This document shows, in pieces, positions 9,059 to 33,258 of a stretch of DNA of 64,000 nucleotides. The notes beneath the pieces are model-generated. The model did not search any database and was not told the DNA's origin. It saw nothing but the letters and a program-made list of their open reading frames with translations. The DNA is from an uncultured delta proteobacterium (GTDB lineage: Bacteria; Myxococcota_A; Polyangia; Polyangiales; Polyangiaceae), in assembly GCA_963696385.1 (NCBI GenBank), contig CAVOKF010000007.1, forward strand, positions 1 through 64,000, given 5' to 3'. Both the position numbers and the translations under genes were made by a program. Position 1 is the first letter of the stretch. Each line of letters begins with the position of its first letter.

Positions 9059-9122
9059 TCCGACGCTCGCGGCTTCTCGCTCGGACTTGACGCTCACGGC
9101 CGACCCATTCACCGTCGCCGGG

Positions 9123-9988: not shown

Positions 9989-10183
9989 CCGGCGCCTGCC
10001 AGAAAATTCGCACCCCTTCAAGCACGGCAACCGCCGAGGGGATACGATTTACGCGTCCGTCTACATTCAGGCGATCCCTGCGCCCGAGGTCGGCGATGGC
10101 GATGTTTTGCGGGCCGTTGGTTCGCGGTCGTTCGTTCGCTTCCAACCGAAGCTCGTACTTGCCGAAGGTGAGATTTAGTGGAG

Positions 10184-12649: not shown

Positions 12650-12859
12650 GGTGAGCAGATAACCGTGCCTTCCCGCAGTCGTCAATAAGCCGCCCAAGGC
12701 TGCACGGGGCGCGTCTCTCCCCGGACAACCCGTTCCGCGGCCGAGTCGGTACGCGGCACGCCTGTCGTGGACGAGCAAAAAAACAAGGGGCCGACGGCGG
12801 CCCGCCGGGCTTTCTACGAGCAGCTGGGAAAAAGCCTCGTCATGCCCGGAGCCCGCGTC

Positions 12860-13292
12860 GAGCTCTCTGCGGAGGCCCTTGGAAGGGATGCACGAACGGC
12901 TGAGTGCCGGGTGTTCATGGTCGGCCGAGCAACCGTTCCGGTGAAATCGCCGTGCTCCTACCCGCGGGCAAGCCGCAGGTCCTCGGCTGCGGGGAGGGCG
13001 AGACCGACGAGCTGCGTACGCACTTTTGCCGCCAACGACCGGGTGCGCTTGAATACGGTCCGTCGCTTGCCGGCGCGGGCTGTCGCGACGCCAGCTCGTG
13101 CTCACACCGCATGACGACGGTGTGACCGTCGAGAGCGTGGGCCGACGCGACCTTCGGGTGAACGGAGTTCGGTGCGACCGAGCGGTCGTTCGTCACACGA
13201 TCTACCTGAGCGGCCAGATCCTGCTGCTCTGTACGCGGCGAGTCCCGTTGATGCCCCAAAGTCAGTATTTCCGAGCGGCTCCTGCTGCATGA
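12860..13292 (+). pseudogene. Fragment of the FHA-like N-terminus of a myxobacterial sigma-54 activator
   Basis: Pieces in different frames: GEIAVLL...VLG...FCRQRPG and VESVGRRDLRVNG...QILLLCTRR. No AAA domain follows. Confidence 0.5.
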
Positions 13293-13328: not shown

Positions 13329-14708
13329 CTATGCCAGGAGCACGAAGGCCGTTCCCGCTAGCACTAAAGCTGCGGCGATGACGATGACGATGGCGACCCA
13401 GAAAGGCACGTGCTTTCTTGGAATATCCACGGACCGCGCGCTCCGCTCCGCCTCGCCGGAGAACCCGCGCCCATCTTGTGGCGGCAGCGTTCTCTCGCGC
13501 CTTTTCGGAAGATTCCATTTCGCGTGGGCTCGCTTCTGTGCGGCGGGCTGTTCAGCCGGCGACCGCTCTGAAGTCGGCCTTGGTGGTGCCGACAAGTGGC
13601 CGACCGATACGACAGCCGTTGGCCTAGCTGCCACAACAGGTGTCGACGCCTCCATTATCGAATTCTCGCTCGCGACCGGATTTGTCGAGACGGAAATTGA
13701 TTGTCCCGATTCGTCCGACTCGGCAGCTTGAGGAAACGTGGCAAAGATCGCTACTTTGACTGGTGGGTGTACAACGCCCTCGCGAGGCACGTTCGCATCA
13801 ATGAAGCGCTTCAATTCAATCAACAGCTCTCCGGCGTTCTGAAAGCGATCCTCGCGACGAAGCGCGATCGCTTTTGCCACCAGTTGTTCAAACGCATCCG
13901 ATACCCAAGCGCCGCGCGACCGCGGTGTCGGCCGGCGCTCGGCCAGAGCCGACCGCATAAGTTCGATCAATTCGTCCCCTTCCAAAGGTGAACGGCCCGT
14001 GACCGCAAAGACGAATATCAGTCCGAAAGCGTGCACATCCGTCCAGCGGCCAGTCGTCCCGTACCTTTTTGCGTAGAACTGTTCGGGCGCGGCCCAGCTT
14101 GGCGAAAACGCGACGAAAGTCGAATGAGCCAATTTTCGCGACTCCGTCTCGCCGTCCTCCACCACTTTTGCGATGCCGAAATCTAGGACCTTCACGCTCG
14201 GCTGCTTGCGGGCTCCTCGCACCACAAAAAGGTTTTCGGGTTTGATGTCTCTGTGAACGATCCCGCGTTTGTGCGCAAAGGCAAGGCCCTCGATAGCGGG
14301 TAGCATCAATTCAGCGACCTCCAGTTCGGTATACGGGCGGCCTTCGCGCAGCATTTTTTCCGCGATCACAGTATCTAGCGATTGTCCCTCGAGCCATTCG
14401 AGAATAAGGTACGGTACCTCGTGGCCTTGGACCGTAGTCGTGATTCCACAATCGAAGACACGAACGATATGTGGATGTTCTGAAAGACGAAATAAAGTCC
14501 GGCCTTCTTCGTTGAACCTATCCAAGAATACGCGCTTCGCTGGCGCCGCGAAGTGCGCGGGGATCTTCAGGCACTTGATCGCGATGGAGCGGCGAAACTT
14601 CTGGTGCCACCCCTTGTAGACGATGCCGAACCCTCCCTCGCCGATCGGCGCGTCGACGCGATACTTCCCGTCTATCGTCGCCCCGATCAGCGAGAAAGGA
14701 TCTTCCAC
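13329..14708 (-). CDS. Ser/Thr kinase ending in a C-terminal TM helix
   Basis: GEGGFGIVY, HRDIKPEN, DFG, WAAPEQ; ends FWVAIVIVIAAALVLAGTAFVLLA*. Confidence 0.9.
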   Translation of the reverse strand: MEDPFSLIGATIDGKYRVDAPIGEGGFGIVYKGWHQKFRRSIAIKCLKIPAHFAAPAKRVFLDRFNEEGRTLFRLSEHPHIVRVFDCGITTTVQGHEVPYLILEWLEGQSLDTVIAEKMLREGRPYTELEVAELMLPAIEGLAFAHKRGIVHRDIKPENLFVVRGARKQPSVKVLDFGIAKVVEDGETESRKLAHSTFVAFSPSWAAPEQFYAKRYGTTGRWTDVHAFGLIFVFAVTGRSPLEGDELIELMRSALAERRPTPRSRGAWVSDAFEQLVAKAIALRREDRFQNAGELLIELKRFIDANVPREGVVHPPVKVAIFATFPQAAESDESGQSISVSTNPVASENSIMEASTPVVAARPTAVVSVGHLSAPPRPTSERSPAEQPAAQKRAHAKWNLPKRRERTLPPQDGRGFSGEAERSARSVDIPRKHVPFWVAIVIVIAAALVLAGTAFVLLA

Positions 14709-14859
14709 CTCCGCGAGATAATCGCGCCTTCGGTCGGTCGTCAAAGGCATTCTCCACGTCCAGGTGCCCGTAGTGTCCGCGCTCGCGAAGAAGCGGCGGA
14801 ACATGAACGAATTGCCGGCCAGTGCGGTCCGGTTGGAGATCGGGTAGGAGCACCGGGCG

Positions 14860-15384
14860 ATGGCCAAGGTCGGACGCAACGATCCGTGCCCGTGCGGCAG
14901 CGGCAAGAAGTTCAAGCGATGCTGTCTCGAACGAGTGGAGGCTGAGGAGCGGGCAGAACGGCTAAGAGCGGAGAGCGAGCGACAGGCTGCGGAAGTGGAC
15001 GGAGGGCCCACGGTCGCCGCGGCGGTGCTGGAGCGGGCGCGGGAGGTTTTGCAGGAGTCGCGGGCGTTGGATGAAGTCGACGGGCTCGCCGAGCGGGTGC
15101 TCGAACAGATCGACGCCGGGCAGTACGGCGAGGCCGAGGCGACAGCTCGCCAGCTCGAGTCGGAATATCCCCACGAGCCTCTGGCAATCGAGCGGCTCGG
15201 TCAGGTGCACGAGGCGAGAGGTTCGGGCGACGTCGCGGCAGAACAGTACCGCCGGGCGGTGATGCTGATGGACGAGCTAGGCGAGGGCCACTACTGCGAC
15301 TGTTGCCGCGCGCGCCTGGTCAAGGCGATCCGTCGGCTCGATCCGGATCGGCCGGCGCCCGCACTGCTTCGCGATCCGCAGTAA
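14860..15384 (+). CDS. SEC-C motif plus TPR-like protein
   Basis: [22 protein letters not shown], a TPR-like helical region and YCDCCR. Confidence 0.85.
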
Positions 15385-15490: not shown

Positions 15491-16378
15491 GTGTGCCGGC
15501 CGCGTCCTTGTACGATCTGTCGTCGATGGTTCCGTCCTGATCCTCGCGTAGGCGAGCGAGCGGCACCGATGCGCTCGGGCGCTTTCGCGTCCACGCCCGG
15601 CCCGGTGCTCGTCTACGGCGCCGAGGATGCACCCGTGGCCCTCCGGGATCGAATCGAAACGATCGCGCGCGCACGTGGCCTCGCTCTGGCCGAGCTCGAC
15701 CTGGCGCTGATCGTCGTCGAGAGCCTTCGCCTGGACGCGGCCCGCGACCGCGCTCGTCTGCGCGCCACCCTTCAGCAGCGCGCCCCGCGTTTGCTCATTC
15801 TCGATCCGCTGGTGCGATTGCATCGGATCGACGAGAACTCGGCGGGCGAGATGAGCGCGCTGCTCGGCGAATTGCGGGCGCTGCAGCGCGAGCACCACGT
15901 CGCCATCGCCCTGGTCCACCACGTGCGCAAGAACGGCTCGCCGCGGGGACAGGACGGTCAGTCGCTGCGGGGCTCCGGCGATCTGCACGCTTGGGGAGAC
16001 AGCAACCTTTACCTGCGCCGACGCGAGGGCCAGATCGCGCTCGCCATCGAACATCGATCCGCGCCGGCCCCGCCGCCGTGCATGCTCGAACTCGCGGACG
16101 GCGCCGACGTGCATCTGCGCGTCGTCGACGGCGGCCCCGTCGAGCGCGACCTGGCGGTCGATACGGCCTACAAGATCGTCGCGCTGCTGTCGGCCGGCCC
16201 CATGAGCCGCGAGGCACTCCGCCAAGCCCTTCACGCTCGCAATGCCACGGTCGGCGAGGCACTGGTCCGACTACGTGCCGAGGGGCGCGTCGTGCGCGCC
16301 GACGGCGGCTTCCGTCTCGCCGCGGGCGTTCCGGTACCCACCCCTATGGGCGAGCGGGAACGGAACGGCCATCTCTGA
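15491..16378 (+). pseudogene. Deletion fusion of a zinc-finger N-terminus to a RecA-like AAA_25 ATPase lacking Walker A
   Basis: CRPRPCTICRRWFRPDPRVGER joined to VLVYGAED...LLILDPLVRLHRIDEN...LVHHVRK...LRGSGDLHAWGD. No GxxxxGKS/T. Confidence 0.7.
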
Positions 16379-17002
16379 ACCGTGCGACACGCAGCGCGGG
16401 GTAGCGCGCCCCAACCCGACCTCGTGCCTCTCCACGACCCCTCGGCGCGCTGCCTCGCGTGAAGGGGCGCCACGCGCGGACCCATGCCCCTCTCGCGGAG
16501 CACCGGCGCTTCCCCCGCGCGTAACGGCAACCGCCGGTCGGCGCAGCGTCCGAAAATCGTCGCATCGTCGTGAGCGCCAACAGCCCGTATACGATGCATC
16601 CGGACACGCTTTGATGACCACGAGGCGATTCAGCGAATCCTGGCCGTTTTCACCGATGCGCAAACTCTTCCTGCTCGGGGCGCTTTCTCTCAGCCGAACA
16701 CTTGGCGACCAGGAGCGCGCCGGGGCTACCGACGGTGGCAACCTTCCACTCAGCGACGATGCGGGTTCGAGAGTTTTCGCTCGGCCGAACCCGGGGCGCG
16801 CGAACGTCGTCTGCCCAACCGACAATGAGTAAGATGGCGTCGACCGTTATGCACGTGTTGAGAAAAAGAACTGCCCACGTCCATCGACAAAGGCGCGAAG
16901 AAATCGTGCGCCTGATTCCACTGTGCAGGCCGCAGCAGAGCGTCGCCACAGCTTCAAAGTCTGTCATTGACGCTCGCGCGGCGGCGCGCTTATCTGCCGG
17001 AG

Positions 17003-18748
17003 GTGGAAGATCCTTTTTCGCTGATTGGGTCAACGATTGACGGGAAGTACCGCGTCGACGCGGCGATTGGCGAGGGAGGGTTCGGCATCGTCTACAGGGG
17101 CTGGCACGAAAAGTTTCGTCATCCGATCGCGATTAAGTGCCTGAAGGTCCCCGCCCACTTCGCGGCGCCGGCAAAGCAAGTATTCTTGGACCGGTTCAAC
17201 GAAGAAGGCAGGACGCTCTTTCGTCTGTCAGAGCATCCAAATATCGTTCGTGTCTTCGATTGTGGAGTCACCGCATCCCTTCACGGCCACGAGCTTCCTT
17301 ATCTGATTCTCGAGTGGCTTGACGGGCAATCGTTAGACGCGTTTACCGCAGAAAAAGTGTGCCGCGAAGGGCGCCCCCATACCGAGCTGGAGATCGTCGA
17401 GTTGATGCGGCCCGCCATCGAGGCTCTTGCCTTCGCGCATGAGCAGGGAGTAATCCACCGAGACATCAAGCCCGACAATTTATTTGTCGTGCAGAGCGCG
17501 GACAATCCGCTGCTGGTGAAGGTCCTTGATTTCGGTATCGCTAAAGTGGTGGAGGATGGCGATACAGAGGCGAGAAAAACGGCCCATTCGACCTTTGTCG
17601 CGTTTTCTCCGAGCTGGGCGGCTCCGGAGCAATTTTACGCGAAGGGCTATGGAGCTACCGGTCGATGGACCGATGTCCATGCCCTTGGGCTGGTATTCGT
17701 ATTTGCGGTCACGGGCCGTTCACCTTTGGAAGGGGACGAATTGATCGAACTCATGCGGTCGGCTCTGGCCGAGCGCCGGCCGACACCGCGGTCGCGCGGC
17801 GCTTGGGTATCGGATGCCTTTGAGCAGCTCGTGGCCAATGCCATCGCTCTTCGCAGCGCAGATCGTTTTCAGGATGCACGTGCATTGTTGAGTGCATTGG
17901 TCGAGTTTAGAGACGCGAACGCTGGCGACTTCGATGCGCGAGTAGCGGGGATCGTCCCCAACGCCCAGGTCAAAAAGCGCGAACCGACCACTCTCTTGCA
18001 ACCTTCCATGCCTACGGTAAATGTGGAGGCTGCGTTGCCGTTGCGGATGGCACAGCCGCTTCAAGGTCAGAGGTTGTCGGCGCCGCTTCGTAGGCGATTT
18101 TGGCGTTGGGACTTTCTCCTAGGGTTGGCAGCGCGAAGTCAAGTCGCCCCGACGACCCGGAACCGACGCTCCGTTTTTGTTGCATGCGGCGTCGCGTTGG
18201 CAGGGATCCTCGTGAGCGCGGGCGTGTTGCTGGGATCCCGCCTCGCAAGGCTTCCACTCGCGGAGCCGACGCCTACGGCGCAGACGGCGGCGGTGGAAGC
18301 GGAACGCCACCCGATCCCAACGCCGCAGCCCGCGGTCGTTGCGACTGTGAACGTGAAGGACCTACCCGGCGCGTCGCAACAAGGCGTTAGATCTCCGGTC
18401 CTCGTTCCCCCAAATTTGAACGACCTGTCGCGGGCTCCGAAGCCGTCCAGCCCCCTCGCGCCGCTCGCCGGTCAGTGTATGACACAGGGTCAGCTGCTTC
18501 AGGTCATCGGTCAGCATAAGGTGGCGATACGACGGCTGTGCTGGGATGGCCATCGAACGGCTCGGCCTGCAGTCGGTATCGCAGTTTCGATGACCGTGGC
18601 TCCGGACGGCACCGCACAAAGCGTGTCCGCGTCTGGCGATGACCCCGAGGTCGCCAAGTGCATCGAGAACGACATACGAAACAACTGGGACTTCGGCAAC
18701 GTCGGCTGCTCACAAAAGGTTAGCATCCCGTTTAGGTTCGTTCGCTAG
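17003..18748 (+). CDS. Membrane Ser/Thr kinase with an AgmX/PglI (TonB-C-like) C-terminal domain
   Basis: Kinase motifs as in the paralogues, TM segment, and VIGQHKVAIRRLCW...TVAPDG...VAKCIE...WDF...VSIPFRF. Confidence 0.9.
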   Translation: MEDPFSLIGSTIDGKYRVDAAIGEGGFGIVYRGWHEKFRHPIAIKCLKVPAHFAAPAKQVFLDRFNEEGRTLFRLSEHPNIVRVFDCGVTASLHGHELPYLILEWLDGQSLDAFTAEKVCREGRPHTELEIVELMRPAIEALAFAHEQGVIHRDIKPDNLFVVQSADNPLLVKVLDFGIAKVVEDGDTEARKTAHSTFVAFSPSWAAPEQFYAKGYGATGRWTDVHALGLVFVFAVTGRSPLEGDELIELMRSALAERRPTPRSRGAWVSDAFEQLVANAIALRSADRFQDARALLSALVEFRDANAGDFDARVAGIVPNAQVKKREPTTLLQPSMPTVNVEAALPLRMAQPLQGQRLSAPLRRRFWRWDFLLGLAARSQVAPTTRNRRSVFVACGVALAGILVSAGVLLGSRLARLPLAEPTPTAQTAAVEAERHPIPTPQPAVVATVNVKDLPGASQQGVRSPVLVPPNLNDLSRAPKPSSPLAPLAGQCMTQGQLLQVIGQHKVAIRRLCWDGHRTARPAVGIAVSMTVAPDGTAQSVSASGDDPEVAKCIENDIRNNWDFGNVGCSQKVSIPFRFVR

Positions 18749-19208: not shown

Positions 19209-22200
19209 TCACTTCTCGACGACGCGAACCTCACGAGTGAAAAACGAGCGGCTCACGCCCAAGGCTCGCAGGAGCGGTGTGACGTTGAATGCTTGGAAGG
19301 TGATGGTGGACGAGCTTTGGGGCATAACTTTAATGGGCGTGCTCACGCTCATCATGACTATTTCATCCGCTCCCCCCCCAATCACAAGCGTGAGCTCCTC
19401 GCATGAGATCACCTGGCTCACGAGCACCCAATCGGCCTCCCATTTCCTGGCTTCCGCCAGAGCTTTGAGCCGTGCGGCTGCCAGCGCAACGTCGAACGAA
19501 TGCGCGGAGGAGCCGCGCATGTTCAGGAATACAGAGCCGGCTCGAGGGAGCGTCAACTGATTCATTCCAAACGCGATCACGTTGGTACCCTGGCTCCGGA
19601 TGTCGATGTCCGCTGCGCGGGCCACGCTCGTGCCGAGATCGTCGGGCACGCCAAGCTCGGCGAGGCTCGTCAGCTTGAAGAAGATCCCGCCGTCGAGCCT
19701 GCCTACGTCTCCGAGCCGAATCGGAACATTGGGGGGCCACGTCAGCCGGAGCCTGAGCTTGTCATGAATCTCCCGGCCGGCGCGCTGCAGGGCGCGGCTC
19801 GCCGAGCCGGTCCGCCGAACCTGTGGCTTGTCGGCCGTTGCGCGGTTGGGCTTGGGCGCAGCGGAGGGGGAAGGTTTCGGGCTGCTCGGCTGAGGTGTGG
19901 CCCCGGTGCTCGCCGACGTCCTCGAACGGTCGGTGCTCGAGGGCGTGGCGAACGACAGCATGGCATCAGGGCGGGCGAAGGCCACGTAGGAGAGCAACGC
20001 GACTGCGCTCCCGGCTCCCAAATCGTCGCTTGTAGCCCGGCGACGCACCTCGACCACCGCCTCGCCCACGGTGCGGCCCGCCCCGATCGCGTCATAGAAT
20101 GCGCGTGCCGCTGCGACGGCCGCTCGGTCGGTTACGGGCATCGAAGGGGCCACGCCGCCCGGACACCCACGCCCTATCAGCGAGAGAAGCATGCGAGGTC
20201 CCCATATACCGCCCGCGTTGAGGAAGAAGAACGGTGGCTTCTGCGTCGACCCCCACAGGTCCTGCAGGTCCGTGGCGCTCATGACCCCGTCCGCAAAAAG
20301 CACGCCCTCATCATCCGAAGCGTGACCCGCAAAGTGGATGAGCCCCGGCACGTCCTCCCGCAAGAGAGCGCTCAGTTCTGCGCGCGTCGTTACTTGAACG
20401 AACGGCACGTTGGGAAAGCGAGCGCGCACTTCGTCCTCCTCGGTCGCGGCAAGCGGGACGCCGTGTTCACCTCTCGGGCGGACGAACGCTATGCGATCGA
20501 CCGTCAGTCGACTGGAAAAGGCAGCGAGCGCAGGTTCGGGGATCCAGCGCAGGACCGGACGAGCGACTCCCAAGAACTCGCGGTTTTTGTCTAGGTGCCG
20601 GATTCGGAGAAGCTCGAACGGGGCGACAATCTCACTGCCCATAACGGTCAGCGGCTTCCCGCCGGCCGACTCGTTCAACACCGAAATAATGCGCTCCGGC
20701 ATCAACGAAGCGAGGATGTCGCCCCGCCGTTCGACCTCGGAGACGCGCTCCAGATCCTTCTCCGCCGCGAGGAGCTCCTCCAGGAGTAGCCAGGACGCCT
20801 CGATGACGAGGTCCCCTCGCTGGAATCGGAGCCGGAACCCGTCCCTCTGTCGGACCACGACCAGCGCGTCCCCCAGGGCGGGAGCGGAAGGCACGGGACC
20901 CGGAAGAGGCGCGCTGCCCTCGTCCTGGGCGCGTGGCTCCACCGGCGCGGTCGCTACGGCGCTCGCCTCCAGAGGCTCGACGAGCCGACGGTAGTCCCCG
21001 CCGCTCCGCAAGAAGACCTGCGCGGCGACTCGCTCGAGCGGCGGCCCACTTCGTCGCACCGTCCCTGCCCCCCCCGGTATGTCGCCGAGCACAACGCGTA
21101 GCGTCTGGCCGCCCACCGCGTCGTGCGCCGCCATTTTCTTGATCACCTCAATGGCGTCGTAGGTCGACACGCCGTTCAGCAGAAGCGCGCGCAGGTCGTC
21201 GCGTTCCTGTTCGGTGTCGCCGGCGAGATCGAGCTCCGCGTCGCCGGAGTCGTCTTCGCATCGGACGACTTGCAGAAGTCCGCTCATCAGCACCTCAGCT
21301 TCGTGGACGACGCCTGCTTCGGGCAGCATCGCCTGGCGTATCATCCGAATCGCCCATAAGGTCAGCGGCGCCGCCGCCGCCAGCAACGCCCCGAGCTGCC
21401 GAGCGGTCGGCGATACAGTCTCGCGAAACTGCTGGAGACGCTCCGCCGCGCCATGTGGCGGCGCCGATTCATCGACGTCAGCGCTCCGGAACGACTCACT
21501 CGTCCACATAACCCCGGGCACCGATTCGCGGCCGATACCGCCGAGCAGGTGCGCGAACCGAGCCATCGCGCGCGCGTCGAGGGCAAGTACTGGGAAGCGC
21601 ACCCCGACGGGGGCGGTCGAGCCGCGATGCATGGCCGGAAGCGGAGGCTCGTGCGACCACGCGAACCCCGAATTTCCGGTGAATAGCGGCCCCGCCCTCA
21701 GCCTCACGTCTTCCGCACGGCCTAGCGCCGTTCTCCACCACATCGTCCTCGGCAGGGCCTGCACGAGCGCCACCGGGGTCCAGCGGGCCCAGTCGGTGAG
21801 CGTCCTGACGAAGTGGCCCTCGCGCCACCCACGCGCCGTGCAGTCGCTCAGAACGAGCACTAAGCGCCGGCCCGTCGGATTGGAGACGGCCCGGTGCGGC
21901 GCGCGGATCGCGGCACGGTTGCGGGGAGCGAGGCCGGGGCGGAGCGTCGTCTCGCGCTCGGCGCGGAACGACCATGTGCGTACGTCGCGGAACGCCCCGG
22001 ACTGGCGCAGCACCCGCTCCACATCCGCGACCAGACCGCGCCACGGGAGCATCGAAACCCCATCGTCCACGAGCAGCGCGACATCGAGCTGCCGGCGCCA
22101 CGCGCGCAGGGGCACCGGCTCCACGACGTTCTCGCAGGCAATCCGCTCGGCGGTGGCCTCCTCGTCGATCTGCTCCGGGTCCTCGACGGCCACGCGGGGC

Positions 22201-22553
22201 AGCGACCTCTTAAGGGCCGATGTGAGGGCCGCTCGCGCCGGCAGCGGCCGCTCCGCAACGACCGGCACGTCGACCCGGGCCGCGTCCTGGCGGGGACGCC
22301 ACTTCGGCGGCGCTGGCGAGCCGGCAGGCGGAGCTTGGACATCCGCCTCGGGCGGCCGGCTCGAAGGTGGCATCTCCTCGCTCGGCTCGGGCACCGGCTC
22401 GGGGGCCGGAGGAGGAGCTGCATCACTGGACCGCGCGACGCCGGAGATGCGGCTCGCCAGCCAGAGAGCATCGGCGATCTCCTCGGGCGACAGATCGCGC
22501 GTGACCCGGACACGCTCGAGCGCCGAGAGCAGCCGCTCGACCGGTCGGCTCAT
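19209..22553 (-). CDS. SAV_2336-type vWA protein fused to an inactive CHAT domain and a C-terminal gasdermin-like domain
   Basis: EEIADALWLA, IDEEATAERIA, LLVDDGVSMLPW, LVLVLSDC (vWA); IHFAGH...FLNAG (CHAT lacking Cys); C-terminal TWPPNVPIRLGDVG...WVLVSQV...TPLL. The vWA and CHAT calls are firm; the gasdermin call is inference. Confidence 0.8.
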   Translation of the reverse strand: MSRPVERLLSALERVRVTRDLSPEEIADALWLASRISGVARSSDAAPPPAPEPVPEPSEEMPPSSRPPEADVQAPPAGSPAPPKWRPRQDAARVDVPVVAERPLPARAALTSALKRSLPRVAVEDPEQIDEEATAERIACENVVEPVPLRAWRRQLDVALLVDDGVSMLPWRGLVADVERVLRQSGAFRDVRTWSFRAERETTLRPGLAPRNRAAIRAPHRAVSNPTGRRLVLVLSDCTARGWREGHFVRTLTDWARWTPVALVQALPRTMWWRTALGRAEDVRLRAGPLFTGNSGFAWSHEPPLPAMHRGSTAPVGVRFPVLALDARAMARFAHLLGGIGRESVPGVMWTSESFRSADVDESAPPHGAAERLQQFRETVSPTARQLGALLAAAAPLTLWAIRMIRQAMLPEAGVVHEAEVLMSGLLQVVRCEDDSGDAELDLAGDTEQERDDLRALLLNGVSTYDAIEVIKKMAAHDAVGGQTLRVVLGDIPGGAGTVRRSGPPLERVAAQVFLRSGGDYRRLVEPLEASAVATAPVEPRAQDEGSAPLPGPVPSAPALGDALVVVRQRDGFRLRFQRGDLVIEASWLLLEELLAAEKDLERVSEVERRGDILASLMPERIISVLNESAGGKPLTVMGSEIVAPFELLRIRHLDKNREFLGVARPVLRWIPEPALAAFSSRLTVDRIAFVRPRGEHGVPLAATEEDEVRARFPNVPFVQVTTRAELSALLREDVPGLIHFAGHASDDEGVLFADGVMSATDLQDLWGSTQKPPFFFLNAGGIWGPRMLLSLIGRGCPGGVAPSMPVTDRAAVAAARAFYDAIGAGRTVGEAVVEVRRRATSDDLGAGSAVALLSYVAFARPDAMLSFATPSSTDRSRTSASTGATPQPSSPKPSPSAAPKPNRATADKPQVRRTGSASRALQRAGREIHDKLRLRLTWPPNVPIRLGDVGRLDGGIFFKLTSLAELGVPDDLGTSVARAADIDIRSQGTNVIAFGMNQLTLPRAGSVFLNMRGSSAHSFDVALAAARLKALAEARKWEADWVLVSQVISCEELTLVIGGGADEIVMMSVSTPIKVMPQSSSTITFQAFNVTPLLRALGVSRSFFTREVRVVEK

Positions 22554-23569
22554 TGTCCCTTGCCAATCTCCCGGAGCAACTCTCGGACGATGCTCTTCCG
22601 TTCCTCCCCGACGGGTGCACGCTCGCCGCGGATGATGTGGATGGCGCTCAGTAGCTGGTCGGTCGCGACGACCCTCTCGGGGTCCTTGTTGAGGTCTGCG
22701 ATCTGCGCGACGAGCGCGTCGATCTCGTCGGCGAGAGGCTGGCTGACGACCTCGGGAAAGTGGGCTTTGATGATGTCGCGCAGTTGAGTCTCGTCCGGCG
22801 GGTCGATACGGAGTCGCAGGCAGCGGCGCAGGAACGCCGCCGGCAGGTCACGCTCACCGTTGCTTGTGAGCACGACGAACGGGAACACGGTGCACTGGAC
22901 CTGCCCGTTCTTGATCGGCTCGAGATCGTCGCTCCCGCCCTCGACGCCGCTCCTGCGCACGCGCACGGTCTCGTACCGGGCTCGGATCCGGCGCGCTTCG
23001 GAGATCTCGAAGGAACCTTCCTCGAACACGTGGAGCAAATCGTTCGGGAAGTCCACGTCCGCCTTATCAATTTCATCGATGAGGAGCGCCCGCGGTTTGT
23101 CGCTCGGGAGCAGCGCGGTACCGAGCGGGCCCAGGCTCAGGTACTGGGAGAGGATCGTGTCCTCAGGCTCGCTGTGGGCTCCCGCTTCCGCGCCCGCTTC
23201 GTTCGCGGCGTCGGCCTCGCGTCCGGCGCTGGGTGCACGCAGCCGGCCAATCGCGTCGTACTCGTAGAGGCCGGCCCGCACGGTGGAGCGCGACGTGATT
23301 GGCCAGACCAAGACCGGGCCGAGACCGAGCTGCTTGGCGACGGCGTAGATCAGCGACGACTTGCCCGTCCCCGGCTTCCCGGTGACGAGCAGCGGGCGAC
23401 GCAAGTAGAGCGCCGCGTTGACCATCTCGATCTCGTGCGTCGTCGGTCGGAACGTGTCGGCCCGGTGGTCGCGCTGGGCGAAGTTCCGCCAGGGCGGCGG
23501 CGCGGGGAACGGCGGCGGCGTGGCGCTTTCTTCGCCAGGTGCACGGAACAGCTTCCACTCGGTGCTCAT
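22550..23569 (-). CDS. MoxR-family AAA+ ATPase
   Basis: VNAALYLRRPLLVTGKPGTGKSS (Walker A), LLIDEIDKAD (Walker B), TSNGERDLPAAFLRRC. ATGA overlaps on both sides. Confidence 0.95.
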   Translation of the reverse strand: MSTEWKLFRAPGEESATPPPFPAPPPWRNFAQRDHRADTFRPTTHEIEMVNAALYLRRPLLVTGKPGTGKSSLIYAVAKQLGLGPVLVWPITSRSTVRAGLYEYDAIGRLRAPSAGREADAANEAGAEAGAHSEPEDTILSQYLSLGPLGTALLPSDKPRALLIDEIDKADVDFPNDLLHVFEEGSFEISEARRIRARYETVRVRRSGVEGGSDDLEPIKNGQVQCTVFPFVVLTSNGERDLPAAFLRRCLRLRIDPPDETQLRDIIKAHFPEVVSQPLADEIDALVAQIADLNKDPERVVATDQLLSAIHIIRGERAPVGEERKSIVRELLREIGKGQ

Positions 23570-25440
23570 CTTCCTCCTCCGGTGCCCGCGCCCGCGTAGG
23601 GTCCTCCGCTCAGCGCATCGAGCGGATTGTCCCAGAGCAGGGTCAGATGTTTTCCGAGCTCTTCCGGCTTTCTTCGGATCAGGCGGACCCGTTCCGGCAG
23701 GTCTTTGAGGGGACCCTCATTCACCAACTCGCGGACCCGCGCCAGGTCGGTCGGAGGGCACGTCGAACGCACCCAAAGGACGACCGAGACGGTCGCGTCG
23801 AGCAGCGGCCTCAGGATGTCCTCGACCGCGTCCGGGCGCCCGAGCACCGCACACGCGAGGCGCGATTGATCGAGTTCTTCTTCGAACGCCTCTGGGTCGC
23901 CGTTTCTTGCAGAGAACCAGCTTACCTCGCCGGCCGGTAGAGCTCCCTCCCGGTACTCGGAAATGGGGACAGGGTGCAGCTTGCTCACACGGCAGAATTC
24001 GTTCCAGCGCTCCCTCCATTGCTTGTCGAAACGCTTCCTCGTTCGTGAGCGTACGGCGTCGCGCACGAGGACCCGGCCCGCCTTGCCCAGGGGCATGTCG
24101 GTTCTCTTGGTTGGGTGGCGGTACGGCCAGCGATCCACGTCCCAGTCGAGCAGCTCTCGATCGAGGAAGATTTCGATGTGGAGATACGCCTCCTCAGTAT
24201 CCGCCGCCGCCTTCGTGATCTGCTCTCCCACGAGCCGCTCTACGGTTGTTCGGTCGACGTTCTGCCGCACCACCTGCTCCACTCGATCGCGGTAGGCCGC
24301 GAGCCGGAAAGCATCCCCGTCGTCCTCCCTCTCGATGCAGATGTGAACGTGGACGTCCGGGTATCGCCAGATCACGTCATCGAGCTGGCGAACAAGGGCC
24401 GGCTCGTCGCCGAGCTCGGCCCTGACCAACGTGAGGATACCTGTCTCGAGCACCCACCTCTTGAGCCGGTCGCGAGTGGCGTCAGGGACGGAGGGCTGGG
24501 GCTGGTCGTCGATGAGCGAAAGCAGCCAGACGAACTTGACGAGCGGCGGCAACCCGAGCTCGCCCGGATTGGCGGCTTGCGCAGGCACCGGCGCGCGCTC
24601 CAGCGCGCGTGCGACCGAGACGGCCTCGCTCTCAAGCGAGGACAGCGCGGGGTACGTCCAGTCGTCCGGTGCCGATCGGCTGAAGGCGGCGGTGAGGACG
24701 GGCCCACACCCGGGAGGAACCTCCTTGAGGCACTCGACAAGCAGACCGTCGACCGGAAGCGGCAAGGGGGCGGCCGGACGAACGACGGGGTCGACAATCC
24801 GTAGCTTCGTCCCATCGACATCCGCCTTGTACCTGGGCGCTACCACGTCACCGGCGCCGGCGCCCATCGCGCTTATCTGGGCGCGCCCCGCTCCGACTGC
24901 ATCGGCAATGTTCTCTCCGGACGCGACGGCAACGTAGAAGCCTCGGGCAAACGCGATCGCGGCCGCGTCGGTGATGGCTCGGGTCGTTCCGACCGCGGTC
25001 TCGATCGTGTCGACGATCTTGTCTGCGATCTGGTCGGAGTAACACGCGCTCAGCACGACGCAGCGAAGGCTTCCTTTGTTGTGGTCGAGGATGTCATGGA
25101 GCAGCCAATCCGGTAGGTCGAACGCGCTGCCCCTGTCGTCGAGGAGTCGGATGGCCGCGCCTGCCGGTTGCCACACTCCCACCGCCGCGGCCCCCTGATG
25201 TGCGGCCCGCCTCCCGCCGCGCGAGCCATGCGCGGCCAGGTGCAGGATCACGGGCTCATGCTCGCGGAGCAGCTCCTGTATCCTTCCCGCCTGGACCTGA
25301 AAGACGGGCACCAGATCCAAGTCTCGGCGATGCCCCTGCGTGATTGCCTCGCGAATGCCCAGTGCTTCGTTCGTGAAGTCGAGCTCCGGTGAGCCGGACG
25401 GACACGCGGCCAGATAAAGGATGTTAATCGGCTTACCCAC
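23566..25440 (-). CDS. CHAT protease fused to a vWA-MoxR-associated protein (VMAP-C)
   Basis: ILHLAAHG and VVLSACYS dyad; C-terminal IEIFLDRELLDWDVDRW, VLVRD, WRERW, VVLWVR, LPERVRLIR, HLTLLWDNP. Confidence 0.88.
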   Translation of the reverse strand: MGKPINILYLAACPSGSPELDFTNEALGIREAITQGHRRDLDLVPVFQVQAGRIQELLREHEPVILHLAAHGSRGGRRAAHQGAAAVGVWQPAGAAIRLLDDRGSAFDLPDWLLHDILDHNKGSLRCVVLSACYSDQIADKIVDTIETAVGTTRAITDAAAIAFARGFYVAVASGENIADAVGAGRAQISAMGAGAGDVVAPRYKADVDGTKLRIVDPVVRPAAPLPLPVDGLLVECLKEVPPGCGPVLTAAFSRSAPDDWTYPALSSLESEAVSVARALERAPVPAQAANPGELGLPPLVKFVWLLSLIDDQPQPSVPDATRDRLKRWVLETGILTLVRAELGDEPALVRQLDDVIWRYPDVHVHICIEREDDGDAFRLAAYRDRVEQVVRQNVDRTTVERLVGEQITKAAADTEEAYLHIEIFLDRELLDWDVDRWPYRHPTKRTDMPLGKAGRVLVRDAVRSRTRKRFDKQWRERWNEFCRVSKLHPVPISEYREGALPAGEVSWFSARNGDPEAFEEELDQSRLACAVLGRPDAVEDILRPLLDATVSVVLWVRSTCPPTDLARVRELVNEGPLKDLPERVRLIRRKPEELGKHLTLLWDNPLDALSGGPYAGAGTGGGR

Positions 25441-25450: not shown

Positions 25451-26863
25451 TCAGAGACGTATCGGCCCGTCCTCGATGAACATGTCCTTCAGCGCGGCGC
25501 CCGGCTTGAAACGGTGCACGTCGGCCTGCACCACCGTCCCGTCGTCGGCGAGCACGGCGCGCGCGAACGTCGGCATCTGGCGCCGCCAGTGTGCGGCCTT
25601 CGCTGGGTCAGTAAGATCGGACGCGAACGCGTCCAGCTCAGCGATCGCCTGGTCGTCTTGCGTCTCCGGGCTCAGGATGCGGGTGGGGACGCGCATGATG
25701 TCGGCCCAGGTTCCGGTGTTGAGGTATCTGGCGCCTCCGCCGAGGTCGACGCGCTTGACGAGGTGCGTGTGCCCGTACACCACCGTCGTGCACCCGCGCT
25801 GCGCGCTCTCGCGGGCGGCATCGCAGTACTGCGGAAGCTCCAGATTGAGGTCGAACGCTTCGGCGGCTTCGCCCCAGCGGGCGCGTAGCACCGTGAGCAG
25901 CTTGTCCAGATACACCGCGCGTTGCTCGGGCACGCGCTTGGAACGCAACAGCATGGAGAGCAGATCCAAGCTCGGACCTCGTGAGGCTTCGCGCGCCCGC
26001 CAGGCGCTCGCGTCGCGGACGACCGATTCCGCCAACGCGAGCTGATCGGCGAGCTCCACCTCCGACGGCGACGACTCAATCTCGGCCGCCAGGTCGCGCG
26101 CCGGGACGTTCCATGGAGCCCACGCGCGGAGCCGAGCGGTCACGGCGTCCTTCAGGACCTGAACCATGTCGCGGGAGTTCGGGATCACGCCGGGCCGCAA
26201 CAGAGCCAGGAAAGGCACCACGGTGGCGTCCTCCGGCTTGAGCAGATCCACGAAAGAGAAGTCTCTCTTGAGCGGGTTCATCACATCGATCACCAAACGG
26301 CTCCCCGGCATCGGCGTGAACGCGCCCGCCGGCAAATCCTTGCCACGTGACAGATCGCGCCGCGCGCGCCGGAGTTCCTCGTGGTTGACCCAGTTCCAGT
26401 CGTCGTACCGGTTGCCATGCTCGACGAGGAGCCCGCCGATGCGCAGTGCCTCGTCGTCATAGAGCATCTCGACGCGGCCTGCGCCGAGGCGGTCCAAGAG
26501 AGCATGACGAGGGGCGGGCAGCGACATTTCGACGTCGTGGTTGCCGAGCAGCACCGTCAGCCGAGCTCCGGCGCGAACGTGGGCGGCGAGCGCCGACCAG
26601 ATCGGAGCGGTGCGTGCGAAGATCTGCTCGAGCTTGCGGGCTGCTTCGCGCTCGTCTCGCGTGAAGGCGGTCGCCGGCGTCTCGGCCAGGAAGTCGACCA
26701 CGTCGCCCGCGAGCACGAGGTGCGCGCCGAGAGCGGACCGATGCTGCGCCGTGACCCACGCGATGAACTCGGCGAGGAGCGCCTGCCCCTGGGGGCCGCA
26801 CATCTGGAAGCCGTCGGCGCCGCCAAGGTGGAGGTCGGAGATGACGAAGACCTGCTGCACCAT
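25451..26863 (-). CDS. Calcineurin-like metallophosphoesterase
   Basis: SDLH, GDVVDF, GNHD, EHG, GHTH and YLNTGTW motifs. Confidence 0.92.
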   Translation of the reverse strand: MVQQVFVISDLHLGGADGFQMCGPQGQALLAEFIAWVTAQHRSALGAHLVLAGDVVDFLAETPATAFTRDEREAARKLEQIFARTAPIWSALAAHVRAGARLTVLLGNHDVEMSLPAPRHALLDRLGAGRVEMLYDDEALRIGGLLVEHGNRYDDWNWVNHEELRRARRDLSRGKDLPAGAFTPMPGSRLVIDVMNPLKRDFSFVDLLKPEDATVVPFLALLRPGVIPNSRDMVQVLKDAVTARLRAWAPWNVPARDLAAEIESSPSEVELADQLALAESVVRDASAWRAREASRGPSLDLLSMLLRSKRVPEQRAVYLDKLLTVLRARWGEAAEAFDLNLELPQYCDAARESAQRGCTTVVYGHTHLVKRVDLGGGARYLNTGTWADIMRVPTRILSPETQDDQAIAELDAFASDLTDPAKAAHWRRQMPTFARAVLADDGTVVQADVHRFKPGAALKDMFIEDGPIRL

Positions 26864-26884: not shown

Positions 26885-29125
26885 TCACTGGTCGTTGCAT
26901 CGTACATCGATGCGCAGGGTCCACGCATACCACGCCGCCTTCTCGGCAGGGTTGATCCATCGCCGAATGCCACCCCCGCGCCTCTTCGGCGGTGCGATGC
27001 TCGCCGAGATCACGTCCTGTACGGCCGGCTGCTCGAGGCTCCGGAAGTTGATGGGATCCGCGCCCGGCGGCGTGGTGCACGCCACGAGTTTGAGCAGCCA
27101 CCGGCTCACGTCCTGATCGCTGCGCGGAGAGAACTGCAGCGGCGTGAAGCGGTCTAGACCGAGCTGGAGTACATCGCCGGGAGCCAACGTCGGCTCCATG
27201 CCCTCCGGCGGCCACAGGGACACGATGCTGCCCCCGTCCGAGAAGGCGACGAGCCCGATGTGAAGCGGGAGCGAGGTCCACATGAGCACCTTCACCTCCA
27301 CGAGGACCCACTGGCTCGGCGTGACGGTGTAGACGCCGTCGACCGGCGCGAGGGCGGTGATCCCATCGGCTTCGCCCTGGCTCCGGGGTGCCTCACCGTC
27401 GCCGGCGCGAAGCTTCACGGCCAGCGTCGTGCTCAGGGTGTCGTCCTGGCTGCGGCGGTCGCGCGCGCTCAGGTAACGGGACCAGGTCGCGAGCCCGCGG
27501 CCTAGCGCTTGCCCGAGGGTGTGCTCCCTTTCCTCGAGGCCCTCGATGAGCGGCCCGGCGCCTGGCAGGTACGCGATGATTTCGCGGGCGCTGTCGGGGG
27601 AGCGCACCGAGGGCGCGCCGAACAGGTCCATGGCGAGAAGTACCCAGCCATCACGCGCTTCTTTCCAGGATTCCGCGACCTCGCCCGGCCAGACGACGGG
27701 TGGGACCTCCCCCTTCCACGAGCGCACCTCGACGTGGGCGGGCTCTGCCTTCGCGGCCTCACGCACGTTCGTCAGCGTGAAGAACCGGCTCTCGTCGGGT
27801 ACCGCGGCCGCGGCCGCCGACACTCCGTCCGGTACGTCCACGAGGCGGACCGAAATGGGCCTCTCAGAGGTGCTCGGACGCAGGAGGCGCGCGCGAGAAC
27901 GGTCGGCCACAGGCTGCGTCGAGTCCGTGCGACGAGCCGTGCTGGACGTAGCCGTTGCCGAGTCGACCATCGCCTCAACCCAAGGCGCGTCGGCCGTATG
28001 AAAGTCGACCGTCTCCGGCGCGTGCACCGCGATGACGGCTCCCGGTTCGAGGCCGTTGAGCGTCCCCCCATCCACAATCAGCACGCCTGCCGCGCCGACC
28101 CGCACCGAGAACCCAGGTGCGAACGGCCGCCAACCGCCGCCGAAGACCGTCTGCTCCCCTCGGCCTTCGAGCACCGGAAGCTGGGGGGAAAGCCTAAGCT
28201 CCGCGATGCGGGCGACGACGGCGTCGCGAAGTCGCTCGAAGAAGTCCATCCACCGGAGCGTCGCAATTCGCTCGGCCGGGACGCGCTCCAGCTCCTTGAG
28301 CAGGTGAAGAGTCAGCACGCCGTGCGGGACGGTGCGCTGCGAACCGTCCGTGGCCAGGATCACCTGATCGTCTTCCTTCGCCGTCTCGGAGTCCCGACAG
28401 GCAGCCAGCAGCACGAAGTCCCCGCCCGGGTACTGACCCAGGCGGCCGATTCCGGCTCCAACGTGCCGCGTACCGGCGGTCGCCTGCGCGAACGCAGGAT
28501 GGCTCCCCGCGAACGCGTTCCACGTCGACGCCTCGAGCGGTGGCATGGCGACGAATCGCTCCCGAGGCGACCGGTCGGCGTCGCGCGTAACTCCGCCGGA
28601 GTGACAGGTATCGGCGATCACGGTGACCTTGGCCCCCTTGCTCTCCAGCGCACGCAGCAGATCGTGGATCTCCCGATCGAGGATCAGGTTGGCGAGCTCA
28701 CCCGCCATCCGGCCGACGTCCTCCGGCGCGAGCCCGTAGTAACGCTCGGCCCCGCCCGGACCGGTCCGCGTGAGTCGAACGCCGTGGCCGGCGTAAAAGA
28801 TGACGACGTTGTCGCCGGCGAGGACGCGGCCGTCCTTCGCGAGATCGGCGAATGCCGAGCGGACGCTGGCCGCCCTGGCCGGAGCGTAGGCCCCATCCTC
28901 CTTGCGCGAGATCAGGCACGCGACCTGGCCTTCCGGCACCCCGACGCGCTCGACGAGGAATCGGCGGAAAGCTTCCGCGTCGTTCCCACATCCCGCAAGC
29001 TGCTCATCGGGTCTCAACAGCGGGTAGCAGTCGACTCCGATGACGAGCGCATGCCACCGGGCGTTGCGAATCGGGCTTTCGGTCTCGGTGCCGGGCACGA
29101 GCACAACGTATCGGCATCGGACCAC
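26885..29125 (-). CDS. Caspase-family (peptidase C14, meta/orthocaspase-like) protease with a DUF4384-like C-terminus
   Basis: HALVIGVDCYP, LAGCGNDA, FYAGHG, ADTCHSGG, LLAACRDSETAKE, HGVLT; C-terminal GGSIVSLWP...LKLVA. Confidence 0.92.
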   Translation of the reverse strand: MVRCRYVVLVPGTETESPIRNARWHALVIGVDCYPLLRPDEQLAGCGNDAEAFRRFLVERVGVPEGQVACLISRKEDGAYAPARAASVRSAFADLAKDGRVLAGDNVVIFYAGHGVRLTRTGPGGAERYYGLAPEDVGRMAGELANLILDREIHDLLRALESKGAKVTVIADTCHSGGVTRDADRSPRERFVAMPPLEASTWNAFAGSHPAFAQATAGTRHVGAGIGRLGQYPGGDFVLLAACRDSETAKEDDQVILATDGSQRTVPHGVLTLHLLKELERVPAERIATLRWMDFFERLRDAVVARIAELRLSPQLPVLEGRGEQTVFGGGWRPFAPGFSVRVGAAGVLIVDGGTLNGLEPGAVIAVHAPETVDFHTADAPWVEAMVDSATATSSTARRTDSTQPVADRSRARLLRPSTSERPISVRLVDVPDGVSAAAAAVPDESRFFTLTNVREAAKAEPAHVEVRSWKGEVPPVVWPGEVAESWKEARDGWVLLAMDLFGAPSVRSPDSAREIIAYLPGAGPLIEGLEEREHTLGQALGRGLATWSRYLSARDRRSQDDTLSTTLAVKLRAGDGEAPRSQGEADGITALAPVDGVYTVTPSQWVLVEVKVLMWTSLPLHIGLVAFSDGGSIVSLWPPEGMEPTLAPGDVLQLGLDRFTPLQFSPRSDQDVSRWLLKLVACTTPPGADPINFRSLEQPAVQDVISASIAPPKRRGGGIRRWINPAEKAAWYAWTLRIDVRCNDQ

Positions 29126-30553: not shown

Positions 30554-32433
30554 TCAGTCCCCGATCCCTCGGTCGAGATCCGGACGTACGACAAGTCGGC
30601 CTTTTGGATCGCGGGAGACCACGACCGACTTGCCCCGCATGGTACGTAGCGTGGTCGTGGTCTCGAGCACGCCGAAGCGCGAACCGTCCGAGATCACGGC
30701 GTACGAGGAGCCGCCGGGCGCCGCGTGGATTTGAACACGCCCGCGGAAGCGCTCCGGCAGCCGTCCGACCAAGGTCTGCCCCAAGCGCGCCGCCATTTGC
30801 TCTCCCACCGCCCGCCGCTCTCGTTCGCGTAGCGCGACAAGCCGACTCGGACCGTCCGGCGCGATGCCGAGCTGCCGCAACGTCTCGGCGCGTTCTTGCA
30901 CGGCGTGCCGCAGTTCCGCGCCGAAGCCGTAGGGCGCCAAGGCTGCCCCCTCGACACGATCCAACCACACCGGGCCGAGGTAACGAATCTGGTCGGCGAG
31001 CGACAGCGGCTCCTTGCGAATGAACAGACGATGTTTCGGAGGTGTCGCCCGGTGCCGCGCTTGCAGCTGTTCGAGGAGGTCTGGCGGCAGCGTCCAACCG
31101 CCCGGACCCGCCGGTGTCGCCAGTCCAAGACGCTCGAGTTCGCGCAGACGCCAACGGGCGGCGCGCTCCGTGGCGTCAACGGCTTCGAAATCGTGCGCGT
31201 AGACGCCGCCGCGCGCGCGGGCCACATGGGCGATGTGCCGGTCGACCGGCCGGATGGCACGCTCCGGTTGACTCGTCACGGACACGATGTCGCCAGGACG
31301 GAGGTCCTCGGCGGACCGCGGGTCGAGCTGGACATGGACCGCGTGGCCCGTTGGCGTCTCAATGACGGCGTACAGTCGACCCTTGAGCTCGTCGGACAAA
31401 CCTTTGCGCGCGACACGCCCCGTCACGACGCCGGCGTCCCCGGCGAGGCCAGGCTCGAGCCCCTCCCCTTCGCCCACGATCCGGTATCGGGCCGGGTCGC
31501 CGCGCACGGCGGCGTGAATCGGCTTGCCATCCGGGCTGGAGCGACCACGTGGAAGGCGACACGCGCTCGGCGAGCCGCATCGCCTCGAGGTGTTCCAGCC
31601 GCGCGACCAGGGTCGAGTCGTCGAACCGCCCAGGCCGCTGCCGAGACCGGACCTCGACCCGGTTGTCGACCGCGCGCCGTTCCAACTCGCGATCGAGCGA
31701 CGTGAAGCGCTCTTGGCTGATCTCCCGCGCATAGGCCCGCTGGATATCGAGGTCATGCCGTGGCCCGAGCTCCTCGGTCGCGATCTCCTGTGCGGTCCGG
31801 CGCAAAGCCGTTCGAGATGTACCCGCGGTCGAGCCGGAGCTCGCGACCGCTTCGGTCGACGCCCCGGATCACGAGATGCGCGTGGGGATGATCGGTATCG
31901 AAATGGTTGACGGCCAACCACTCGAGCTTGCGATCGAGATCGCGCTCGATCCGATCCATGAAGCGCCGGACGTACGCGGTGAGATCCAGTTCCGCCGCGT
32001 CTTCCGGGGACAGGATGAACCGAAATTGGTGCCGCTCCCCGGCACGTGGCTGCTCGAAGGTCTCGACCCGAGCCGGCTCGTCGGCCGTGTACGCCACGCC
32101 CTTGGAGCCGTCCTTTTCAACACCGTCACGCTCGATGTACCGCAGATGCAACGCCGCCGCCTTCGCGCCGCCGGCCCCCAGGCGCGCGACGTGCACCTTG
32201 ACGACCGCCCGGCGCGCACTCGCATCCGGTCGCGCCACGGCGACGCGCGAGCGCGCGACTCGCCGCTGCGCCGTGCGGGCGCTCCGCGCCATCTTCGACA
32301 AAAGTGCGCCGCGAAACGAGCTTCTTTCGCCGCGAGGCGCCCGTTTTGGCCCTCGCCCCATCCGAGGCCTGAAAATAGGGAGATCGTCGCGGTCGATCAC
32401 GAATAGCTCCACCTTTTCATGATGGCTTTCCAC
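30554..32433 (-). pseudogene. VirD2-like/DUF3363 (RlxS-type MOBP) relaxase with two frame breaks
   Basis: RRAVVK, HLRYIERDGV, HQFRFILSPED and NHFDTDHPHAHLVIRG (3H motif) in 31753..32433; QEIATEELGPR/ERFTSLDR in 31359..31805; GRVARKGLSDEL and VWLDR...PYGFGAE in 30554..31520. Confidence 0.9.
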
Positions 32434-32960: not shown

Positions 32961-33258
32961 GGCCCTGCGCCGCATCCAACGGTATCGGCTACGCACGCGG
33001 CAGGTTAACGCACCGACGTGCGCACGGGCAGGTGCAGCGCAGCCCTTACCGCCACCGCGTTTGCGGGCAGCGTTTGCCGCGACTTCCCTGCCCGGTGTCC
33101 AACCAGACCGCAGCGGTCTTTTCGTCATGGCTGCGCGCTCGCTGGCCTTCTCGCAGAGGTGTTGTCTGTGCACCAGTCGATCCCGTTCTTCGGCGACAGC
33201 CGGATGCCGTATGCTCAGGGTGGTTCATCGCGGAGCCTTGGATCCCGGGACCGCCCCC

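Follow-up and report, generated by a model that had tools for sequence, protein, structure and literature searches.

A very probable, tail-less gasdermin-fold effector domain that ends the vWA protein of a predicted vWA-MoxR-VMAP system from a Polyangiaceae genome

The stretch of DNA analysed here (the window) comprises 64,000 nucleotides, positions 1 to 64,000 of contig CAVOKF010000007.1 from an uncultured delta proteobacterium of the Polyangiaceae (assembly GCA_963696385.1), and this work concerns one of its genes, P0001, and above all the domain of about 200 residues with which the encoded vWA protein ends. This C-terminal domain is very probably a gasdermin-fold effector. For the protein as a whole we prefer the reading, to which we give a probability of about one in two, that it is a tail-less gasdermin effector which would be restrained from its N-terminal side, released by cleavage in trans within the linker, and would kill the cell through pores. 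The gene and its parts are laid out in the window as follows.

19209..22553, minus strand: whole P0001 gene, an open reading frame (ORF) of 3345 bases for 1114 amino acids (aa), the vWA component carrying the effector
21126..22487, minus strand: vWA region, N-terminal and of SAV_2336 type (NCBIfam NF041121), aa 23-476 of P0001
19956..20876, minus strand: CHAT-like module, aa 560-866 of P0001, predicted pseudoprotease
19809..19955, minus strand: low-complexity linker rich in P/S/T/A/R, aa 867-915 (49 residues), candidate protease-accessible tether
19212..19808, minus strand: very probable gasdermin-fold domain, compact and tail-less, aa 916-1114 of P0001
19209-19211, minus strand: P0001 stop codon

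For domain searches and modelling, the last 205 residues of P0001 served as the query (P0005, window 19212-19826), and they hold in frame all the peptide strings from which the initial annotation had proposed a compact gasdermin at this end of the protein. The AlphaFold2 model of P0005, built on a 136-row alignment, reached a predicted local distance difference test score (pLDDT) of 89.3 and a predicted template-modelling score (pTM) of 0.84. When this model was compared with the PDB by Foldseek, as had been suggested as a check against gasdermins including RCD-1, 14 matches were obtained at E<=1e-3, and ranks 1-13 were all gasdermins, from Vitiosangium, Runella, Bradyrhizobium and Trichoplax as well as GSDMA3, GSDME and RCD-1, with moderate template-modelling (TM) scores of 0.35-0.51. 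The predicted order of elements in P0005 (helix 7-24, strands, helix 113-125, long strands 133-149 and 175-193, and a terminal strand) agrees with the succession that the annotation had described, and the near-invariant residues of the family, W30, P32, G39, G42, F49, F93, W129 and P184, are retained.

The sequence relationship to bacterial gasdermins (bGSDMs) was found at the level of the family, by profile and by PADLOC, and not with the single domain. A phmmer search of 1.84 billion cluster representatives returned 324 proteins at E<=1e-3, eight of them at E<=1e-10, and most of these relatives are standalone, 240-270 aa long, with a match that starts near their tenth residue. When 64 relatives were combined into a profile, it recovered the solved Bradyrhizobium gasdermin 7N50 (E 6.7e-6), with profile positions 52-204 aligned to 57-209 of the chain; the next matches, at E>=0.014, are leucine-rich-repeat noise. 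Nine of the 64 relatives are also picked up by the PADLOC bGSDM model PDLC02986 (best E 1.2e-6), whereas the window domain is not. As a lead only, the nearest cluster in the ESM Atlas carries Bact_GSDM (PF26164) in 11% of its members, at a score of 0.91 that lies under the recognition level. P0005 by itself had no match in a Pfam set that was searched without PF26164, a result which therefore has no weight regarding that family. The gasdermin reading of the annotation is thus borne out by the fold model, the Foldseek ranks and the family profile together.

NF041121 matches P0001 with an E of 3.2e-87 and 293 bits (cut-off 200), the homologues of the CHAT-like module (P0155-P0158) end where the linker begins, and residues 1-10 of the P0005 model, at the end of the linker, have a pLDDT of only 58. 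The 56 residues of aa 863-918 comprise 9 P, 11 S, 7 T, 9 A, 5 R and 3 K. The P0001 region is covered, with zero differing letters, by contigs from four runs of one soil-metagenome study, possibly the source sample of the assembly and so not independent of it; no RNA run was listed among the sequencing runs that carry the region. Because three of the contigs (X1 19760-20441, X2 19620-19971 and X4 19582-19881) connect the gasdermin-like domain with linker and CHAT module without a differing letter, the fusion is not an assembly join.

Compared with its family, the domain is shortened at two places and at its end. Against the 136-row alignment, about 17 columns are absent after P0005 residue 88-89 and about 14 after residue 165, and in the model of the standalone relative P0026 (pLDDT 86.8) the segments deleted in P0005 are the loops 80-96 and 171-190, each at the end of a strand excursion. 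In gasdermins of solved structure these excursions are the proto-fingers, which refold into membrane hairpins. The term proto-finger is used in the Vitiosangium pore preprint. P0001 and the vWA fusion P0006 are the most compact, each about 29 residues under the profile span covered.

At the C-terminal end, profile position 227 is followed by only 3 residues in the P0001 domain, whereas the median for 136 standalone relatives is 24.5 (five partial-match rows, P0129, P0064, P0113, P0099 and P0085, were dropped from this scoring). The standalone tails are acidic: in 119 tails with lengths of 15-60 aa, D/E make up 23%, as opposed to 11% in the domain, and many of the tails share a recurring motif resembling F-x-E-[VIL]-D-[YF]-x-D-[FL]. 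In the P0026 model the tail forms a low-confidence loop at 227-243 followed by a short strand at 252-254, the same pattern of cleavage loop and inhibitory peptide that Johnson et al. describe for bGSDMs. An autoinhibitory peptide behind a cleavage loop is absent from the P0001 domain. There is also no Cys in the linker or in helix 1, and the domain lies inside the P0001 chain rather than at an N-terminus. Since a Cys occurs within the first 8 residues in just 5 of 135 standalone members, the clade is mostly non-lipidated and forms a divergent branch of the bacterial gasdermins; a bGSDM without an N-terminal Cys is also named in the Johnson et al. preprint. The annotation had noted both shorter hairpins, the little room left for a C-terminal inhibitory peptide, the missing lipidated Cys and the Pro/Ser/Arg-rich linker that follows the vWA/CHAT part, and all of these hold, with the addition that the lack of an early Cys is common to nearly all standalone relatives.

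The CHAT-like module of P0001 is predicted to be a catalytically dead pseudoprotease. Its Pfam CHAT match is weak (E 1.2e-4, 22.1 bits, cut-off 24), and in an alignment with the closer homologues P0155-P0158 (E 5e-38 to 1e-12) the motif PFFFLNGCRA, common to all four, is replaced in P0001 by PFFFLNAGGI, after which 9 residues are deleted. His744 is retained (20322-20324), and the column of the catalytic Cys is occupied by Gly781 (GGC, 20211-20213), a codon that four contigs cover with no other letter; the His-Cys dyad is thus incomplete. We also considered Cys790 (GRGC), placed in the catalytic-Cys column when MAFFT was run with distant CHATs and when BLAST was run against the VMAP CHAT of P0003, and rejected it, as it falls in a non-conserved column of the closer homologues; BLAST against another CHAT placed the catalytic column elsewhere, and pairwise BLAST alignments are ambiguous on this point. 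Self-cleavage by the CHAT of P0001 is therefore unlikely on present alignments, and because the catalytic Cys is missing, any cleavage must act in trans, by the CHAT of VMAP or by a C14 caspase. Both are encoded upstream, among the following genes on the same strand:

22550..23569, minus strand: MoxR-type AAA+ ATPase, P0002, 339 aa (Pfam AAA_5 25.7 bits, cut-off 22; bpMoxR weak)
23566..25440, minus strand: VMAP, P0003, 624 aa, with N-terminal CHAT and VMAP-C (PF20028 E 1.1e-30; CHAT E 4.2e-5)
25451..26863, minus strand: calcineurin-like metallophosphoesterase, P0004, 470 aa (PF00149 E 3.3e-6)
26885..29125, minus strand: peptidase C14 caspase-like protein, 746 aa (PF00656 E 1.5e-13)

The ATG of P0001 overlaps the MoxR stop by 4 bases (ATGA), the MoxR start overlaps the VMAP stop by 4 bases, P0004 lies 10 bases upstream of the VMAP gene, and 21 bases separate the C14 gene from P0004. 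MoxR AAA+, vWA component and VMAP-C are encoded together, and in P0001 the vWA region is succeeded by the CHAT-like module and the gasdermin-like domain, which marks the operon, by its predicted gene content, as a VMAP-type vWA-MoxR ternary conflict (abortive-defence) system. In such systems the vWA component carries variable effectors at its C-terminal end (Kaur et al. 2020, PMC7159879; also PMC8195603), and a caspase-like domain on the vWA component is nearly always paired with one on VMAP (PMC7159879). The dyad of the VMAP CHAT is intact, its HLAAHGS and VLSACYS aligning with the dyad of other CHATs, and the C14 protein keeps its His and Cys motifs (YAGHG and DTCHSGG). The operon thus brings along dedicated proteases of its own, with the VMAP CHAT as candidate activating protease and the C14 peptidase as second candidate.

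To see how the domain is used elsewhere, the 150 best representatives and the window protein were examined, with a form being called fused when more than 60 residues precede the domain. Ten fused forms were found, six of them with recognised N-terminal domains: P0001, P0006 and P0099 carry the SAV_2336 vWA region (P0006 together with trypsin, AAA_35 and SLOG domains), P0101 an nSTAND1 domain, P0116, from a Polyangiaceae metagenome-assembled genome, a metallophosphoesterase and a STAND-like ATPase, and P0032 SLOG and GAF domains. In P0006 and P0099 the same C-terminal domain stands behind S/P-rich segments that precede helix 1, and a long flexible linker containing Arg/Lys precedes helix 1 in all three vWA fusions. 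Among the fused forms that could be scored, 8 of 9 have at most 12 residues past profile position 227 (range -8 to 12), against 7 of 136 standalone relatives; the remaining one has 38. This is the strongest comparative hint, in raw counts, that an N-terminal tether may replace the C-terminal peptide.

A Ser-rich run after Arg or Gly was also seen in 4 of 5 fused forms inspected (RRTGSASRA, ERASSSSSA, PRSSSAA and RQGAASSRA). It lies just ahead of helix 1 and about 25 residues before the conserved W-P motif, at aa ~905-925 in P0001 and at the equivalent place in P0006, P0099 and P0032, and it is possibly a shared cleavage site or simply a helix cap.

The mechanism that we prefer would run as follows. 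At rest, the domain would be kept harmless as the tethered end of a vWA/pseudo-CHAT body of ~900 residues within the MoxR complex. Upon a trigger, the MoxR/vWA/VMAP machine would switch on a live caspase-like protease, either the N-terminal CHAT of VMAP or the upstream C14 peptidase, which would cut the 49-residue P/S/T-rich linker, and the freed domain of ~200 residues would oligomerise in the inner membrane, so that the cell dies. The sequences DRSR, KPNR and QVRR within the P0001 linker could suit C14 enzymes with Arg/Lys specificity, as known from metacaspases. [quoted passage not shown] The domain is joined to its partner at the end opposite to that in the studied gasdermins and is therefore probably kept off in a different way.

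Several points weigh against this reading. Caging and release by linker cleavage are plausible but putative. In published work, N-terminal GFP fusions of the Runella and Lysobacter gasdermins stay active, and the GFP-tagged Lysobacter gasdermin still defends; because these fusions are active, bulk added at the N-terminus does not by itself inhibit, and release may be unneeded. The STAND NTPases P0101 and P0116 and the SLOG-GAF protein P0032 end in the same domain, and Pfam finds no protease domain in them. The two proto-finger segments are each about 15 residues shorter than in relatives, so that membrane spanning is not assured, and P0005 alone matched neither the PADLOC bGSDM model nor PDB sequences (phmmer). 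Finally, fusion and tail loss are linked through raw counts: FastTree placed the 145 domains in a poorly resolved tree, the fused label changes 7 times on the best tree and supported branches force only 2 changes, an independent-pairs test of fusion against tail had too few pairs, and four of the fused forms (P0007, P0010, P0082 and P0148) have no recognised N-terminal domain and may be miscalled starts.

The main rival to cleavage, and a serious one, is tethered activation, in which trigger-dependent oligomerisation or remodelling of the vWA-MoxR-VMAP complex gathers many C-terminal domains at the membrane and nucleates a pore while they remain attached; we regard it as possible, though somewhat doubtful. 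It would resemble NLR/STAND-fused effectors and cleavage-independent eukaryotic gasdermins such as RCD-1, to which the domain is structurally alike, and the dead CHAT of P0001 suits it, as do the published functional GFP fusions of the two bGSDMs. The protease-less STAND and SLOG-GAF fusions likewise fit activation by assembly rather than by cutting. However, the operon itself encodes two live caspase-like proteases, standalone relatives adjoin CHAT genes in other genomes, a flexible linker with Arg/Lys precedes helix 1 in every vWA fusion, and a ~900-aa body on each of tens of protomers far exceeds GFP in size, all of which speak against this rival.

A non-pore role, in which the shortened domain would be an adaptor, a decoy substrate or a regulatory module for the caspase-like proteases of the system, is improbable in our estimation. 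The short proto-finger segments and the absent lipidated Cys would suit it, and the fused CHAT, as a pseudoenzyme, indicates that parts of this protein have already lost catalytic function. Nevertheless, the fold is predicted with high confidence and the near-invariant family residues are kept, RCD-1 pores use chains of similar length (214-234 residues modelled in 8jyz), the genome has no second family member that could be recruited or mimicked, and the independent vWA fusion P0006 is equally compact, which suggests a maintained functional variant. The weakest alternative, a chance resemblance of an unrelated beta-rich domain, could appeal to the moderate TM-scores and to a single sequence without significant Pfam, PADLOC or PDB-sequence matches, and we consider it hardly credible.

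A wider class of reversed-polarity or sensor-tethered bacterial gasdermins may also be proposed, although only tentatively. In this class the C-terminal peptide would have been given up in favour of N-terminal control by vWA-MoxR (P0001, P0006 and P0099), STAND or SLOG-GAF sensors, and in P0001 the dead CHAT would grip the gasdermin domain while the paired live CHAT of VMAP cuts the linker.

The family is rare and patchy: its profile matches 5 of 301 genomes sampled from the phylum, the window genome included, and the window genome (6.9 Mb, 96% complete) has a single member. The PADLOC bGSDM model found none in these 301 genomes or in 14 controls and is uninformative on absence. No homologue of P0001 was found in 15 same-genus and 10 same-order genomes in a stricter first look, a word-index search for fused relatives of 612-1950 aa returned P0001 alone, and a search with the relative-alignment (A2) profile gave 7 matches, none with a precomputed Pfam domain; looking up clusters yielded no telling names. 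In 3 of the 4 other loci of the same phylum, a CHAT gene adjoins the standalone family member. Genome G106 (locus L009) has the gasdermin-like gene at 8226-8930(+), CHAT at 8935-11274(+) and a MoxR-like AAA gene at 11327-12229(+), and its CHAT is 29% identical to the VMAP CHAT of the window (E 4e-15). In G116 (L010), the gasdermin-like gene at 8140-8842(-) and CHAT at 5796-8255(-) are followed by an unassigned ORF and a large protein with a formylglycine-generating-enzyme-like (FGE) sulfatase domain. The members in G106 and G116 are standalone proteins of ~234 aa with 24-residue acidic tails; we also considered their ORFs as N-terminally extended fusions that keep the tail and rejected this, since their mutual identity of 82% starts ~20 residues before an internal Met, as expected of a longest-ORF artefact. 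A 1331-aa protein that comes next in L009 was likewise rejected as a homologue of the P0001 vWA protein, as it had no BLASTP similarity to it and no Pfam match.

A third locus (L011, G061:C7:61000-78000) holds an inflammasome-like trio of ORFs at 8023-8910(+), ~8910-9758(+) and 9759-12740(+), which encode, in this order, the standalone gasdermin-like protein, a CHAT with EAD5 (Effector-associated domain 5), and a NACHT NTPase with a C-terminal FGE-sulfatase domain. FGE-sulfatase domains thus recur in sensor proteins beside family members in G061 and G116, and a gene with this domain is also present near the window operon. The metallophosphoesterase, a separate gene in the window operon, is fused with a STAND-like ATPase and the gasdermin-like domain in P0116, which suggests that metallophosphoesterase and gasdermin-like domain may be functionally linked. 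A terminator-like hairpin with a T-run at window 19245-19261 (-) falls within the final 50 coding bases of P0001 and not past its stop; one such site was found against 0.8 in shuffles, and it is probably due to chance.

Three Ser/Thr protein kinases flank the operon, one of them with PEGA domains and an end resembling 3-keto-disaccharide hydrolase, and a 1316-aa kinase-GAF-sigma54-activator fusion lies further on. These and the other genes near the operon are as follows.

10184-13105, minus strand: Ser/Thr kinase gene
13329-15011, minus strand: Ser/Thr kinase gene
15491-16378, plus strand: AAA_25 gene
16967-18748, plus strand: Ser/Thr kinase gene
30554-31921, minus strand: DUF3363 gene
33018-35219, plus strand: ankyrin-repeat gene
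36039-37523, minus strand: FGE-sulfatase-domain gene
39599-43549, minus strand: kinase-GAF-sigma54-activator fusion

In the literature compared, as far as its accessible parts show, gasdermins are controlled either by C-terminal inhibition and cleavage or as free small proteins activated without cleavage. If the reading preferred here is true, P0001 would represent a third way to silence the gasdermin fold, in which it is placed C-terminally on an ATPase-driven sensor complex and the C-terminal peptide is lost. This would give the large vWA-MoxR-VMAP conflict systems, which belong to multicellular-type bacteria, a killing mechanism that is concrete and simple to assay, and it would offer a minimal gasdermin of ~200 aa for structural work, while the pair of dead and live CHAT echoes the regulation by pseudo-caspases in animals. 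P0001 thus combines a solid identity, a recurrent architecture and readily testable biology with a regulatory mechanism that we infer.

Among known systems, the P0001 domain belongs by fold and profile to the bGSDMs (Johnson et al. 2022; Vitiosangium 7N51/8SL0/9A84, Runella 7N52, Bradyrhizobium 7N50). However, bGSDMs are free proteins of 240-270 aa, whereas this is the C-terminal domain of a 1114-aa vWA protein, and it lacks three canonical features, being neither a free small protein nor provided with a C-terminal inhibitory peptide or an N-terminal Cys. Its proto-finger segments are shorter than theirs by ~15 residues at two places, the domain alone escapes the PADLOC model, and if it is cleaved, its regulatory part precedes the pore-forming domain on the N-terminal side. 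For RCD-1 the trigger is the mixing of two antagonistic allelic variants that co-assemble, and no second family member was found in the window genome that could act as such a partner. RCD-1 of Neurospora and the Trichoplax gasdermin are small, cleavage-independent, eukaryotic and standalone, whereas the P0001 domain is tethered to an NTPase-driven machine.

With the VMAP-type ternary systems described in PMC7159879, the window operon shares the three core genes, the overlapping of genes, the C-terminal effector on the vWA component and caspase-like domains on both vWA and VMAP. The word gasdermin does not occur in the main texts of that paper and of its 2021 follow-up (PMC8195603), whose source-data tables could list the domain under another name, and in the incompletely covered literature we came upon no account of a gasdermin joined to vWA-MoxR or STAND proteins. 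Described in a preprint (bioRxiv 10.64898/2026.10.05.756811), the pyroptolysins, which are gasdermin-CDC chimeras, are also natural fusions of the gasdermin fold with some proto-finger helices absent, and for one of them a 21-residue N-terminal extension is proposed to be autoinhibitory; according to the same preprint, a gasdermin typically becomes active once its C-terminal autoinhibitory domain has been removed, but animals and fungi also have cleavage-independent cases. In pyroptolysins, however, the gasdermin is N-terminal and a CDC-like targeting domain C-terminal, and they are solitary genes and predicted toxins, whereas P0001 would be a sensor-tethered intracellular effector. A parallel in polarity is the EACC1 protease-effector module (PMC12642450, preprint), in which an N-terminal autoinhibitory fragment is cut off by a caspase-like protease, leaving a C-terminal fragment that forms membrane pores. 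EACC1 is an unrelated small protein with fragments of 5.7 and 7.1 kDa and with neither gasdermin fold nor vWA fusion, but its order of release is the one that we propose for P0001.

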